A DNA stretch of 16,160 nt from an uncultured Candidatus Saccharibacteria bacterium (GTDB lineage: Bacteria; Patescibacteriota; Minisyncoccia; Sungbacterales; JACQCQ01). Within the stretch, counting starts at the first letter, position 1; each line of letters opens with the position of its first letter. Below, one piece after another: positions 9,219-14,274 of the stretch. Below the pieces are notes generated by a model. That model had not been told where the DNA came from. It searched no databases and was given only the letters and a program-made list of their open reading frames with translations. Location of the stretch: NCBI GenBank assembly GCA_964428455.1, contig CAYRYI010000007.1, positions 1-16,160 on the forward strand. Direction: 5' to 3'. A program made the translations under genes and the position numbers.

Positions 9219-9968
9219 CTAGACGTGATCTGCGCCAAGCCAAGCTAGTTCAAAGACTAGGCGCATTGTATTTGCTATTTCCGGTTCTTCTATAATAGCC
9301 GTCATCGACTGACCGCGCAGCGTTGTAAGTGCAACCCTGGAACTATAAATTGATATGTCGGCTGAAAACGGAAACTTATCTTTCGGCACGAAACGTCTTT
9401 CTCCCGAGCTTACAAATCCCCCAAAAGGCCCATCGGCGCTTGTATAAATGGCTCTGATTTTAATTCCGAGTTCATCTCTCTTTTTAATAAATGCTTTGGT
9501 TTGTTCTAGCGGAAACAAATTTTTAACCTCATCGAAAGAATAAATTGCCAGAACTTCTTTCGCCCCAGATGAGAGAAGGTCTTCTCTGACGGCCTCTCTT
9601 CCTTCCGACCCTTCAAAGAATCTTACCCGCGGCCTGTCTCGCGAACCGGAAAATAACGCGTCCAGTTCCGGTAATATCTTTGAAAATTCATTTTCTTTTG
9701 TCCTTATTTCCTCTTCCTGCGTTCTGAATATTCTAAGCAAAACGCTCGGATTTTCCGCAGCGAATAAGATTTTGTTTTTCTTTTCAACCGTACTTACGAC
9801 CCCGCGCCTTTTGAGCGTTTCGAGGACGACATAAGTCGTCGCCCGATTGACTTTGGCCTTTGCGGCAATATCCTGAACTGCCGCGCTCCCCAATTCCAAG
9901 AGCGCGAGATAAACTCGCGCCTCTTTATCCGAAAATCCCAATTTCTTCAGCTCAAGCTCAAGCGGCAT
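9219..9968 (-). CDS. TrmB-family HTH transcriptional regulator
   Basis: N-terminal winged HTH EARVYLALLELGSAAVQDIAAKAKVNRATTYVVLETLKRRGVV, typical of TrmB. 249 aa, with a C-terminal sensing domain. Confidence 0.75.
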   Translation of the reverse strand: MPLELELKKLGFSDKEARVYLALLELGSAAVQDIAAKAKVNRATTYVVLETLKRRGVVSTVEKKNKILFAAENPSVLLRIFRTQEEEIRTKENEFSKILPELDALFSGSRDRPRVRFFEGSEGREAVREDLLSSGAKEVLAIYSFDEVKNLFPLEQTKAFIKKRDELGIKIRAIYTSADGPFGGFVSSGERRFVPKDKFPFSADISIYSSRVALTTLRGQSMTAIIEEPEIANTMRLVFELAWLGADHV

Positions 9969-10623: not shown

Positions 10624-10977
10624 CTATTTTGCGCCGCGCCTGGCAAGCAAATATGCCGAGCGGAAGTATGGAACCAATGCGGCGGCTTCCCGATTCGTTT
10701 TCGGCAGCGGAACCTCAAGCCATCTGCCGAAGGGCCGCCCCGCGTTGAAGAATTGGCGCACCTGCCTACCGGCAGGCAGGCTTCCCCTTTCCTTGAGCAG
10801 TTCGCGGCGATTGGCCTGCGGCACTTTTATGCCGAATGAATCCTCCATCACGAACGCAAAGAGTTTCGGCCCATAGAAAAATCCGGCGGAACCGAATAGA
10901 TGCCGGATATGGCGGCGCGGCCACTTGGCGGTTTTCGATTCTAAATACTTGATAAACGATGCGCGCGAAACTCCCAT
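10624..10977 (-). CDS. TfoX/Sxy N-terminal-domain family protein
   Basis: RHLFGSAGFFYGPKLFAFVMEDSFGIKVP...PF...WLEVP matches the TfoX_N pattern (R.MFGG.G.Y.dG.mFA.v.dd.lYLKvd). The frame is open to a TTG at 11064, so the start is uncertain. The gene contains a REP-like palindrome at 10761-10780. Confidence 0.5.
   Translation of the reverse strand: MGVSRASFIKYLESKTAKWPRRHIRHLFGSAGFFYGPKLFAFVMEDSFGIKVPQANRRELLKERGSLPAGRQVRQFFNAGRPFGRWLEVPLPKTNREAAALVPYFRSAYLLARRGAK
10761..10780. repeat. REP-like palindrome CCTGCCTACCGGCAGGCAGG (copy 2, inside a coding region)
   Basis: 19/20 identical to 172-191. It lies in-frame in the TfoX-like gene and encodes ...LPAGRQ.... Confidence 0.5.
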
Positions 10978-11138
10978 ACGGGGTGGTCGAGATCCAACTA
11001 TTGATGCTATTATAATACGCGATAGCGTATTATAATAGCGGACAGCAAGAAGGTAATTTCTCAAATTGACTTTACTTTAAGGCGCGCCTAATGTGTAGCC
11101 AGCGAGCACCTTCCCACTAACCATAAAGGAGGCCCGGG

Positions 11139-12290: not shown

Positions 12291-12318
12291 AAGTTGCGCC
12301 GGAAGCGCCGGCGCAAAT

Positions 12319-12352
12319 CACCCCGACACGCGCGTGTCGGGGTGATTTTCTG
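12319..12352. terminator. Rho-independent terminator after the GH-like gene
   Basis: Perfect palindrome CACCCCGACACGCGCGTGTCGGGGTG followed by ATTTTCTGTT. Confidence 0.7.
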
Positions 12353-12550: not shown

Positions 12551-12646
12551 TGATAAAAGTCGGAAAATTCCGGTCGGGGGGCCGATCCGTCAGCTGACGG
12601 AGAACCTAGTCTGTATGCTTCTTCGCCCCGTTAGAAATCGAGTTAA

Positions 12647-12822: not shown

Positions 12823-13212
12823 CTAGACGCCGCGCTGGTCCCAAACGGCGTTTTCGATATGGTCAATATGCTTGACTTTGAGCTCGCTGTCGAGGGTTAC
12901 GGAAATCACATCTATCTGCCATTCAACATCAGGATCAATTCTCTCTCTCACAAGATAGAGCTCGCACAACCCCTGCAGACGCCTGCGCTTTCGCCTGTCC
13001 ACCCGCTCCTCGGGACTGAATGCCTCCCTATGTGTCTCTATGCTGGTTTTTACCTCAACAAAATAGAGCTTTCCGCGCCTTTTCGCAACAATATCCAACT
13101 CCCCCATCGGCATCTCGTAGTTTTGGGCGACAACCGAGTAGCCCTTTGACTTAAGATGTTCCACGGCGGCCCTCTCCCCCGCCAGACCGATTTCCAAGTT
13201 TTTCAGAGCCAT
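12823..13212 (-). CDS. yraN: YraN-family (UPF0102) endonuclease
   Basis: GERAAVEHLKSKGYSVVAQNYEMPMGELDIVAKRRGKLYFVEVKT is the canonical YraN signature. 129 aa. Confidence 0.8.
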   Translation of the reverse strand: MALKNLEIGLAGERAAVEHLKSKGYSVVAQNYEMPMGELDIVAKRRGKLYFVEVKTSIETHREAFSPEERVDRRKRRRLQGLCELYLVRERIDPDVEWQIDVISVTLDSELKVKHIDHIENAVWDQRGV

Positions 13213-13265
13213 TTTTGAATCATATCCTGTTGTTCATGGTCGAACAACTGTTAATTCGCCCAATG

Positions 13266-13293
13266 TTGATATTTCTGTGAAACTGTTTATAAT
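13266..13293 (+). promoter_or_regulatory. sigma70-like promoter (TTGATA-16-TATAAT) for the LAGLIDADG gene
   Basis: Lies in the AT-rich intergenic region shared divergently with yraN. A hairpin AATGTTT-gtgatga-AACATT abuts the start codon. Confidence 0.5.
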
Positions 13294-13334
13294 GTTAATT
13301 GGTGTAACAATATCAATGTTTGTGATGAAACATT

Positions 13335-13748
13335 ATGAGTAATAAGTCAGAATTTTACAGAGCGGTCAGAGATGAAACTTATCGTACCAGAGAAGAGATA
13401 CGAGATAGAATAACCGATGAATACATCCTCGGGTTATTCGAGGGAGAAGGCTGTTTTGGGAACATGCGTGACGGCAGAGGAAACCAGGTGCCAGCGTTCA
13501 TGCTAAAGATGCATGTACGAGATAAGGAGCTTATTGAGGGCATAAGGGATTATTTAGGAGTGCCCGACAGAGTCTACGAATATAAGCACGGCGGTAGGCA
13601 TTATGCCCTACTTCAGATCAGAGACATTGGGACACTGAAAAATAAGATCGTACCAATCTTTCATACCAAGCTTCTTGGTCATAAAGGTACACAGTTGGAG
13701 GCGTGGTTAAAAAAATATCCGTACCTTAGGGGTCTACATCAAAAGTGA
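13335..13748 (+). CDS. Free-standing single-motif LAGLIDADG homing endonuclease (I-CreI-like size)
   Basis: 137 aa. ILGLFEGEGCF is the LAGLIDADG motif and ...KIVPIFHTKLLGHKGTQLEAWL is the typical C-terminal region. The gene is strongly AT-rich relative to its neighbours and is not embedded in any recognisable intron or intein. Confidence 0.75.
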   Translation: MSNKSEFYRAVRDETYRTREEIRDRITDEYILGLFEGEGCFGNMRDGRGNQVPAFMLKMHVRDKELIEGIRDYLGVPDRVYEYKHGGRHYALLQIRDIGTLKNKIVPIFHTKLLGHKGTQLEAWLKKYPYLRGLHQK

Positions 13749-13785
13749 GTAAATAAGCCAAAAAATCGTGTTTCATGACAAACAT

Positions 13786-13821
13786 CTAAAGGACATTCCG
13801 TTTAGACTGAATGTCCTTTAG
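13786..13821. terminator. Perfect 13-bp-stem hairpin between convergent HE gene and tRNA cluster
   Basis: CTAAAGGACATTC-cgtttagact-GAATGTCCTTTAG. Likely a bidirectional terminator. Confidence 0.55.
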
Positions 13822-13900
13822 ATATGTCCTATATAAATAGAGCTGGGAAGTGGGTAACGAAGGGATCGAACCTTCGGCCTCTGTCGTGTGAAGACAGCGC

Positions 13901-13927
13901 TCTGCTTCACCCTCCCACCTTTTTAGT
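13901..13927. repeat. Inverted repeat arm (partner at 14171-14191) forming a ~20-bp helix in the - strand transcript
   Basis: The + strand sequence ACTAAAGGTGGGAGGGTAAGC at 14171-14191 is the reverse complement of CACCCTCCCACCTTTTTAGT at 13908-13927, with small bulges. Confidence 0.6.
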
Positions 13928-13981
13928 GGACGCCTCTGGGACCCAACCAGCAATCTTCGTAACTTACCCCGTTAGGTTTAT

Positions 13982-14020
13982 TGGTGGGCGCAGTAGGTAT
14001 CGAACCTACGACCTTTGCAA
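13982..14020 (-). tRNA. tRNA-Glu(UUC) 3' half (exon 2, CCA encoded)
   Basis: T-TGCAA-AGGTC-GTAGG-TTCGATA-CCTAC-TGCGCCC-A-CCA. It completes the anticodon stem and acceptor stem of the 5' half at 14133-14168. Confidence 0.65.
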
Positions 14021-14132
14021 TGCTTGCCCCGTTAGATCTAAATATGGGCAGTACAGGATTTGAACCTGTGACCCCCGCAATGTGAATGCAGTGCTCTACC
14101 ACTGAGCTAACTGCCCATGAGATCTAATAGGG
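14021..14132 (-). other. 112-nt intron-like insert in the tRNA-Glu anticodon loop, consisting of tRNA-Val flanked by a 13-bp helix
   Basis: The 5' flank is CCCTATTAGATCTCAT and the 3' flank is TATTTAGATCTAACGGGGCAAGCA. CCCTATTAGATCT pairs with AGATCTAACGGGG at 12 of 13 positions. The junction falls at loop position 37/38, or 35/36 given the duplicated CA. Confidence 0.55.
14045..14116 (-). tRNA. tRNA-Val(CAC), complete, embedded inside the tRNA-Glu gene
   Basis: GGGCAGT-TA-GCTC-AGTGGTA-GAGC-A-CTGCA-TTCACAT-TGCGG-GGGTC-ACAGG-TTCAAAT-CCTGT-ACTGCCC-A. All four stems pair and the anticodon is CAC. Confidence 0.8.
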
Positions 14133-14168
14133 TGAAAATGCAACGCTCTACCACTGAGCTATGCGCCC
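14133..14168 (-). tRNA. tRNA-Glu(UUC) 5' half (exon 1)
   Basis: GGGCGCA-TA-GCTC-AGTGGTA-GAGC-G-TTGCA-TTTTCA. The acceptor 5' strand is exactly complementary to TGCGCCC in the 3' half. Confidence 0.65.
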
Positions 14169-14274
14169 TTGACTAAAGGTGGGAGGGTAAGCTGAGCTAG
14201 TCACCCTTATAAATCATACTTAGGCTATTGTAGCCAATATGAATTACCGAGACAAATTAAGCTTATCCTAAATA

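Follow-up and report, generated by a model that had tools for sequence, protein, structure and literature searches.

The endonuclease gene and its product

The stretch of DNA analysed here, referred to below as the window, comprises 16,160 nt of contig CAYRYI010000007.1 from an uncultured Candidatus Saccharibacteria bacterium and contains, on the plus strand at 13335..13748, an ATG-initiated open reading frame (ORF) for a predicted single-domain LAGLIDADG endonuclease of 137 aa. Reading along the window, tRNA-Gly, tRNA-Pro and yraN are all encoded on the minus strand (the last at 12823..13212, a UPF0102 gene of the PD-(D/E)xK nuclease type with a Pfam match at E=1.5e-21) and are followed by the endonuclease gene on the plus strand, a hairpin and a nested tRNA cluster on the minus strand (13851-14206). 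The first-pass annotation of this DNA had placed the endonuclease gene in divergent orientation to yraN and in convergent orientation to the tRNA cluster, and had described it as standing alone; both descriptions hold. LAGLIDADG genes usually reside within group I introns, archaeal introns or inteins, and free-standing members are known. Around the present ORF, whose non-coding flanks measure only 122 nt and 97 nt, no group I intron or other non-tRNA RNA family was detected with Rfam at gathering thresholds, a relaxed Rfam search (E<=1) returned no intron model but only tRNAs and spurious hairpin matches, and neither an interrupted host gene nor an in-frame host ORF (i.e., an intein host) was found.

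Assignment of the product to the LAGLIDADG family, likewise proposed at first pass, is borne out by a profile search, in which LAGLIDADG_1 of Pfam was matched above its cut-off (34.8 bits vs. 23.1, E=3.4e-8, profile positions 1-100 of 102) and LAGLIDADG_3 below threshold, as well as by the predicted fold. Matches obtained with phmmer in the PDB were I-HjeMI, I-AniI, the bI3 maturase and I-OnuI (best E=3e-15). An AlphaFold2 model based on 26 homologs (mean pLDDT, the predicted local distance difference test score, of 88.6) displays the order alpha-beta-beta-alpha-beta-beta-alpha, with helices at residues 28-38, 61-74 and 98-109 and strands at 39-45, 51-60, 80-85 and 88-95; a Foldseek search with this model retrieved LAGLIDADG enzymes only, at a probability of 1.00 for I-AniI, I-OnuI, I-HjeMI, bI3 and I-TnaI (5gkk). 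The family motif reads ILGLFEGEGCF and belongs to the LAGLIDADG helix at residues 28-38 (Y30-I-L-G-L-F-E-G-E38-G-C-F), and the active-site residues K117 and Q120 lie within LLGHKGTQ. In the HMMER alignment, E38 stands opposite both D16 and the acidic residue of the second motif of I-AniI, and K117 opposite K227 of I-AniI, D16 and K227 being residues that we take to be catalytic. The catalytic acidic residue is thus present as E38, and G37-E38-G39, K117, G118 and Q120 are invariant in 26 homologs (53-97% identity) and are also kept in 27 species-level loci with identity down to ~36%.

The gene is under strong purifying selection, as seen from a ratio of non-synonymous to synonymous substitution rates (dN/dS) of ~0.07 between two alleles of one species and from the comparison with a 91%-identical ortholog, in which the non-synonymous divergence (pN) is 0.05 and synonymous sites are saturated. 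On the basis of sequence and structural model, the ORF is taken to encode a genuine single-domain LAGLIDADG endonuclease with a predicted intact active site. LAGLIDADG homing endonucleases introduce a site-specific double-strand cut into a target of ~18-22 bp, leaving 4-nt 3' overhangs, and their single-motif members are expected to act as homodimers. The single motif and the size of 137 aa suggest that the window enzyme would assemble as a homodimer as well, and DNA cleavage would be its predicted activity. Membership of the family is in itself ordinary and already captured by automatic annotation: the closest named homolog, from a Candidatus Sungbacteria metagenome-assembled genome (MAG), is annotated in GenBank as 'LAGLIDADG family homing endonuclease'. 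The family comprises 245 representatives (sequence clusters) among 1.84 billion proteins.

With a GC content of 0.43, the ORF forms the AT-rich patch amid GC-rich neighbours that had been noted at first pass; the remainder of the window stands at 0.53 and the protein genes on either side at ~0.60. It is AT-richer than the host locus in 27/27 loci, by 9.4 points on average, and its GC content tracks that of the host (r=0.75). Because low GC is family-wide and follows the host, it is not a sign of recent import, and a recent horizontal acquisition deduced from AT-richness was ruled out on this ground. A phage origin of the gene was rejected too, no close relatives having been found in viral contigs.

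Upstream of the ORF, a promoter-like site (TTGATA-16 nt-TATAAT, 13266..13293, plus strand) matches the consensus at 11/12 positions and lies 41 nt upstream of the ATG; its spacer contains GTGAAACTGT, and its -35 hexamer begins at position 13266, which had been given as the left end of the element in the first-pass annotation. Both hexamers are unchanged in the allele of L001 (L-numbers designate related loci and contigs compared with the window) despite 10% divergence of the spacer. Since seven promoter-like sites occur in the 2.3-kb region vs. 2.9 expected, the match alone is only suggestive, and the consensus promoter credited to the gene at first pass is retained as a good promoter-like site, defined by consensus match only.

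Residence beside yraN

In a survey of one genome per GTDB species, which returned 61 loci, a yraN homolog directly adjoins the endonuclease gene in every locus with a match of at least 36% identity (~30 Patescibacteria species); in this survey these are L017-L042, from Sung-, Lipton-, Colwell- and Jorgensenbacteria, Paceibacterota and other Patescibacteria MAGs. The adjacency holds for 27/27 species-level loci in which both genes are intact, and in addition for L078, L080, L081, the decayed copy of L069 and L037, a contig that breaks off within yraN. Contigs with 60-97%-identical homologs all carry the same divergent pair, yraN(-)/endonuclease(+), and this is also the usual arrangement, with the endonuclease gene at the yraN 5' flank and a spacer of 25-125 nt; in L035, L038 and L042, the endonuclease gene is located upstream of yraN on the same strand, and the two ORFs overlap (by ATGA in L035 and by 18 nt in L038, the coordinates of L042 suggesting ATGA too). 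All endonuclease partners of yraN are single-domain proteins of 138-174 aa. Matches of at most 34% identity (Aquificaceae, Gammaproteobacteria, Anaerolineae, archaea and a Kuenenbacteria MAG) have no yraN nearby, and three of the four distant loci scanned with Rfam (L043, L049, L057) are inside 23S rRNA genes, L043 also giving a group I intron match. Among the more distant carrier loci, only about half have tRNA genes within 6 kb, and yraN is always adjacent there: the endonuclease gene follows yraN, not the tRNAs. As a separate observation, a gene for a DksA/TraR-type zinc-finger protein and one for ComM (Mg_chelatase/ChlI/Mg_chelatase_C) are present ~0.6-1.6 kb downstream of the endonuclease gene in L019, L033, L036 and L041; with these genes on one side and yraN on the other, the cassette sits within a yraN-comM neighbourhood in those loci, the only four in which comM was seen near the endonuclease gene.

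Occupancy of this site is patchy. A metagenome scan seeded with an alignment of five YraN sequences returned 80 loci, and the endonuclease gene was present in only 3/48 loci whose yraN is flanked by 500 nt or more on each side, the gene-less loci being metagenome contigs from genomes that may hold a copy elsewhere. Three gene-less loci (L093, L126 and L127) encode a YraN 69-71% identical to that of the carrier L018 and share its gene order, tRNA-Val(CAC) - yraN - tRNA-Pro - tRNA-Gly; a 1.2-kb contig with a tRNA-Val of anticodon TAC (L102, YraN 74%) has no endonuclease gene upstream either. The DNA of L018 and that of gene-less L093/L126 are too divergent for an alignment of the junctions, and comparison of the insertion site is made at the level of motifs only.

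Both replacement and decay of the gene are seen at this position. Clade A, as defined here, contains the window, L078, L017 and L080, and clade B contains L018, L007 and L013; YraN is 67-86% identical within clade A vs. 32-40% between the clades, and the endonuclease 63-69% within clade A vs. 52-63% between them. L081 combines a clade-A YraN (69-74% identity) with an endonuclease that is only 34-41% identical to the others and represents another subfamily (best match 55%). Decayed copies lie beside yraN in L069 (5343-5640), where the N-terminal 60 aa and a frame-shifted C-terminal fragment persist and the core is deleted, and in L037 (375-830), where the ORF is broken by one in-frame TGA.

At the strain level, the window and L001 are 99.1% identical over 4442 nt, and 36/39 differences fall into a single patch (13189..13650), which extends from the first 24 nt of yraN across the spacer and over three-quarters of the endonuclease ORF, counted from its 5' end. 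Within it, 12/122 spacer positions and 17/414 positions of the endonuclease ORF differ; the 3.9 kb upstream of the patch contain only three differences, and the flanks differ by ~0.1%. L003 carries the same patch, with only three further aligned differences in 1.3 kb downstream. This mosaic looks like a gene-conversion tract centred on the cassette. The differences in yraN are confined to codons 2-8 (13189-13209), with seven substitutions in 21 nt vs. none in the remaining 366 nt, a cluster that could mark where a conversion tract ends or could be a polymorphism conferring immunity of the target site. The endonuclease gene was found on 10/10 contigs among those listed with the exact YraN of the window, and it appears to be fixed in the population of the window, a scaffold of the Rifle groundwater type.

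Pairwise identities of the endonuclease and of YraN are correlated over 27 loci (Mantel r=0.65, 0/2000 permutations), and among quartets that both distance matrices resolve, agreement climbs from 62% through 81% to 96% with an increasingly strict resolution margin; the two proteins therefore largely share their history.

The ORF is bracketed by two copies of a palindromic box, TGTTT[C/G]-N4-[C/G]AAACA. Box 1 (ATGTTTGTGATGAAACA, 13316..13332) ends 2 nt before the start codon and box 2 (TGTTTCATGACAAACAT, 13769..13785) lies 20 nt after the stop codon; as upstream and downstream arms they make up a 17-nt inverted repeat with 16/17 (94%) complementary positions, a score reached by 0/100 shuffles, and in the allele of L001, where G at 13324 is replaced by C, complementarity reaches 17/17. 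Box 2 is conserved in L078, L017, L012 and L007, where it can fall in the last codons ('VSRQTV'), and box copies also flank the ORF in L025 (21 nt), L027 (a perfect 19-nt palindrome on both sides), L024 and L041. Exact occurrences of GTTTCA-N4-RAAC number 15 within 150 nt of gene ends (9 kb) vs. 10 in the other 268 kb, i.e., a ~45-fold enrichment. ORF-flanking inverted repeats are significant in only 5-6/28 carrier loci, which makes bracketing by the box common without being general. In four gene-less loci (L083, L084, L086 and L101), a single box precedes the yraN ATG by 0-5 nt, and behind it come the GGACAT/ATGTCC repeats also seen behind box 2 in the window; from this the cassette looks as if it had been inserted between the yraN start and the box.

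Several further observations concern the boxes and the repeats next to them. L035 (5945-5965) and L038 (5940-5960) contain a palindrome, TGTTTGTGCACAAACA, perfect in the former and with one central mismatch in the latter, that is situated ~30-45 nt upstream of the first start codon of the operon and represents a 'G-type' variant of the box. A hairpin with an 18-bp stem (ATCTAAAGGACATTCCGT / ACTGAATGTCCTTTAGAT, 13784..13823), which separates the endonuclease gene from the tRNA cluster, belongs to a conserved zone of GGACAT/ATGTCC repeats (13784-13833), and similar repeats are present in L016, L012, L078, L093 and L101, with or without the endonuclease gene; the hairpin may be a terminator or a protein-binding site. 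A role of the box as a general competence operator was considered and rejected, no box having been found near comM/dksA in the four loci carrying them.

Proposed homing and its alternatives

We tentatively interpret the ORF as a free-standing gene for a site-specific LAGLIDADG homing endonuclease that resides on the 5' flank of yraN. According to this interpretation, a free-standing cassette would be held at one chromosomal site, between yraN and the tRNA-Val locus, and its homodimer-type product would cut alleles without the gene at a (pseudo)palindromic target, for which the TGTTT[C/G]-N4-[C/G]AAACA box directly adjoining the yraN start of gene-less relatives is the best candidate. Repair of the break would copy the cassette together with adjacent yraN sequence from the carrier allele, and natural transformation, of which Patescibacteria are capable, would supply the donor DNA. 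The palindromic box would be the most likely recognition element of the endonuclease; homing itself and the identity of the target are what we infer from the comparative data. Counted in favour of homing, as a possible rather than a secure conclusion, are the LAGLIDADG identity of the product, the single insertion site, the patchy distribution, the turnover in L081, the mismatch between clades A and B in the divergence of enzyme and YraN, the decay in L069 and L037, the boxes and the mosaic patch. Also counted are the location of the nearest outgroups (<=34% identity) in 23S rRNA genes, i.e., in the classical setting of homing endonucleases, and the small size of a family without close relatives in viral contigs. 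The first-pass suggestion of an independently mobile selfish gene comes close to this interpretation in its first part but fails in its second, which had the gene targeting the tRNA region: presence of the gene follows yraN, its resident site is the yraN flank, and the tRNA-Val - yraN - tRNA-Pro synteny also occurs without it.

A number of observations weigh against homing. A fixed, purely selfish element should decay, yet dN/dS is 0.07; the tracking of host GC argues for long residence over recent import; the overlap of the two ORFs in one clade suggests co-expression and possibly a function shared with yraN. Furthermore, about half of the carrier loci have no exact box, and intact boxes on both sides of the gene in carriers are not what a simple 'split target' would leave after homing. 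The shared history of the endonuclease and YraN fits vertical co-inheritance at least as well as homing, and it could also be obtained by co-conversion of the adjacent 390-bp yraN during homing. A different account, which we hold to be possible but doubtful, makes the endonuclease a co-opted host gene and long-standing partner of YraN, working through the role of YraN in the ComM/YraN transformation D-loop system, either by a site-specific break or nick at the boxes or by regulation of yraN, as part of a vertically inherited two-gene module that was lost in many lineages. It would accommodate yraN adjacency across deep divergence (~36% identity) in two arrangements (divergent and, in one clade, an overlapping, translationally coupled tandem), the correlated identities with their near-complete agreement of strongly resolved quartets, the adjustment of GC to the host, and the combination of invariant catalytic residues and low dN/dS in a gene found on every listed contig with the yraN allele of the window. 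It would also fit the position of comM ~1 kb downstream in four loci, given that YraN is described in a preprint as a single-stranded DNA endonuclease that is required for natural transformation and acts with the ComM helicase on the transformation D-loop (10.1101/2024.02.06.579203). However, most yraN loci, including those of close relatives with identical synteny, have no endonuclease gene, the same site holds a different enzyme lineage in L081 and decayed copies elsewhere, the preprint makes no mention of LAGLIDADG proteins (10.1101/2024.02.06.579203), and adjacency with shared history would also be yielded by site-specific homing with co-conversion. It is somewhat unlikely, in our estimate, that the enzyme is no parasite, or no longer one, and that some Patescibacteria have recruited it as a third part of their YraN/ComM recombination apparatus, in which it would act as a site-specific nuclease at the boxes to start or direct recombination. 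The same reserve applies to the notion, drawn by analogy, that recombination so directed would involve, e.g., incoming transforming DNA or the neighbouring polymorphic tRNA cassettes and would make the enzyme a bacterial counterpart of yeast HO.

The remaining explanations are considerably less probable than either of these. The product could be a non-catalytic relic or a DNA-binding regulator of the boxes, e.g., one that autoregulates its own gene and yraN; the boxes do occupy the promoter or start-codon position of the first gene (yraN in gene-less loci, the enzyme gene in carriers), and the operons of L035 and L038 are preceded by one box each, but the invariance of E38, K117 and Q120 over deep divergence is hard to explain without catalysis, and gene-less loci keep the box, which is therefore independent of the endonuclease, so that we consider regulation improbable. 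Still further down, a hidden group I intron or other self-splicing element around the ORF, which would be the usual setting of the family and in which the 17-nt inverted repeat could close an RNA stem, is barely tenable in view of the lack of Rfam intron matches at E<=1, of flanks formed by the start of a protein gene on one side and the 3' end of a tRNA on the other, no host gene being interrupted, of the short non-coding sequence on either side (122 nt + 97 nt) and of the overlap of the ORF with yraN in one clade. A connection with the interrupted tRNA genes, which the first-pass annotation had envisaged in the form of a homing or processing factor for the tRNA inserts, is very improbable. 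The enzyme would have to cut uninterrupted tRNA-Val/Ala/Glu genes to drive insertion, or else to act on their RNA as a maturase or splicing factor; that the gene and the tRNA inserts lie close together in the window and several relatives speaks for this, as do the bifunctional I-AniI and the bI3 maturase among the best PDB matches and the fact that the nested tRNA units are polymorphic between strains, so that something moves them. Nevertheless, all four combinations of gene and nesting exist (scored partly by eye), with no co-variation between them: carriers have a nested tRNA-Val (window, L007, L012, L017 and L081) or an uninterrupted one (L018 and L078), and loci without the gene likewise have a nested (L085, L086, L093 and L126/L127) or an uninterrupted one (L084). 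L078 is the most telling, since its enzyme and YraN are 91% and 86% identical to those of the window, its downstream box and GGACAT zone are kept, and its tRNA-Val is the uninterrupted ortholog of the outer tRNA-Val of the window; in the window itself, the enzyme coexists with an inner tRNA-Val that is whole here but interrupted in the sister strains L003 and L166. An enzyme targeting these tRNA genes should not coexist with uninterrupted alleles. Moreover, many carrier loci have no tRNA gene within 6 kb, the endonuclease keeps its catalytic residues whereas bI3, a dedicated maturase, is presumably without DNA-cleavage activity, and the boxes, compared by eye with the insert junctions, share with them nothing beyond a trivial TTCAC of the Val anticodon loop.

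A tRNA-linked function was discarded on the strength of the four-way presence/absence table and of L078, and the tRNA cluster is a bystander in ancestral synteny, not a target. Also dropped was the notion of an EndA-like two-piece RNA splicing endonuclease assembled from LAGLIDADG and PD-(D/E)xK partners, an idea said to go back to Bujnicki and Rychlewski in 2001; YraN has a reported role in DNA metabolism, and the inserts persist where no endonuclease gene adjoins them.

Neighbouring features and related systems

The nested tRNA locus (13851-14206, minus strand) has three levels, and the nesting is supported by in-silico excision. The outer tRNA-Val(CAC) (14206-14189 + 13908-13851) is interrupted in its D-loop by a 280-nt insert (14188-13909) that is closed by an 11-bp stem (ACCCTCCCACC/GGTGGGAGGGT); the middle tRNA (14168-14136 + 14023-13985), which is either Ala(UGC) or Glu(UUC) according to where the junction is placed, has a 112-nt insert in its anticodon loop; and inside the latter resides an intact inner tRNA-Val(CAC) (14116-14045), all on the minus strand. 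In the sister strains (L003 1028-1147; L166), an extra 118-nt unit, which is another tRNA-Val and is flanked by a 12-bp stem (CCCCGTTGCAAT/ATTGCAACGGGG), is present in the anticodon loop of the inner tRNA-Val at window position 14083/14084, and the tRNA inserts appear to have been recently gained, lost or reshuffled. In other species, tRNAs with several inserts at once (D-arm or D-loop, anticodon loop and T-arm, as judged by eye) were seen on the minus strand of L007 (1900-2360), L012 (980-1440) and L016 (3100-4660), the interrupted region of the last being ~1.5 kb long and including a 146-aa ORF without a Pfam match. Insert modules (e.g., GGGAAATTTAGYGAGCC... and GGGTTTTGC...GCAAAAC) as well as insert junctions (TTTCACCC ... 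GGG(C)AAGCAT) are conserved between species. No Rfam intron family matched the nested inserts, and a literature search found no paper describing such a nested tRNA locus; group I introns in tRNAs of Patescibacteria have already been published (PMC13011429).

Other features of the window lie close to tRNA genes or in the wider surroundings. The motif CTAACGGGG(Y)(R)AG occurs three times on the minus strand (12622-12630, 13966-13974 and 14026-14034), each copy 9-12 nt after a tRNA 3' end (tRNA-Pro, the middle tRNA and the inner tRNA-Val, respectively), and the 3' flank of tRNA-Pro (12560-12646) contains a hairpin, TCCGTCAGCTGACGGA, like one inside the tRNA insert of L016; taken together, these sequences suggest a family of small hairpin modules associated with tRNA genes. 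A perfect hairpin with a 15-bp stem (AAATCACCCCGACACG/CGTGTCGGGGTGATTT, 12315-12348), located between the convergent DUF4015 gene and tRNA-Gly, is likely a bidirectional terminator. Farther upstream, a TrmB-like regulator is encoded at 9219-9968, and an ORF on the minus strand (10624-11064) shows a sub-threshold match to TfoX_N (27.5 bits vs. 30.1); TfoX proteins regulate competence in other bacteria.

Among known systems, the homodimeric single-motif enzymes I-CreI, I-TnaI and I-ShaI are alike in having one LAGLIDADG_1 domain of ~140 aa, the same predicted fold and an acidic residue at the helix end, and for these enzymes as well as for the window endonuclease a (pseudo)palindromic DNA target is expected. 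They differ in being encoded within rRNA group I introns or insertions and in targeting the rRNA gene, whereas the window gene is intergenic and beside a protein gene, its product being at most 34% identical to the rRNA-borne relatives found. I-ShaI belongs to the same phylum and is a single-domain enzyme of the rRNA insertions of the Candidate Phyla Radiation that is active as a homodimer (PMC11270868); the paper describing it does not use the term 'free-standing' (PMC11270868). I-AniI and the bI3 maturase, although the best sequence and structure matches of the endonuclease, are two-domain monomers in mitochondrial group I introns and aid the folding of their own introns, whereas the window gene is intron-less.

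The seg and mob genes of phage T4 are free-standing homing endonuclease genes that presumably spread by 'intronless homing', i.e., by nearby cleavage with co-conversion of flanking markers. They resemble the present case as stand-alone genes of patchy presence between conserved genes, and their co-conversion resembles the patch at 13189-13650; they differ in belonging to the GIY-YIG or HNH families and to a phage genome, whereas here a LAGLIDADG gene of a bacterial chromosome accompanies one host gene across a class-level radiation. Yeast HO is a domesticated, intein-derived LAGLIDADG protein with two domains and zinc fingers, and the break it makes starts gene conversion of the host. It is likewise free-standing, stably inherited and under selection, but its intein derivation, second domain and extra zinc fingers set it apart, as does a break that serves the host, and it offers an analogy only if the window gene was co-opted. 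The YraN/ComM system, finally, shares with the loci described here YraN (UPF0102) as the constant neighbour and, in four loci, ComM at a distance of ~1 kb; it has been described without a LAGLIDADG component, and most yraN loci are without the endonuclease gene. The yraN linkage, the free-standing clade and the bracketing boxes are unmentioned in the rRNA-insertion paper (PMC11270868) and in the YraN preprint (10.1101/2024.02.06.579203), and no search was aimed at the pairing itself.

Overall, stand-alone LAGLIDADG genes of bacterial chromosomes tend to receive an annotation and no further attention, and here a small family of them is locked to yraN. With either of the two principal interpretations, the link to the nested tRNA genes is removed, and the nested tRNAs need an explanation of their own. 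If the cassette is a homing element, it would be a clean case of intron-less homing in bacteria at a defined chromosomal site, with a palindromic candidate target and with both carrier and empty alleles existing in nature, and compact meganucleases might be drawn from it. If it is instead a co-opted partner of YraN, it would represent a rare domestication of a homing endonuclease in bacteria and would add something new to what is known of recombination in Patescibacteria.

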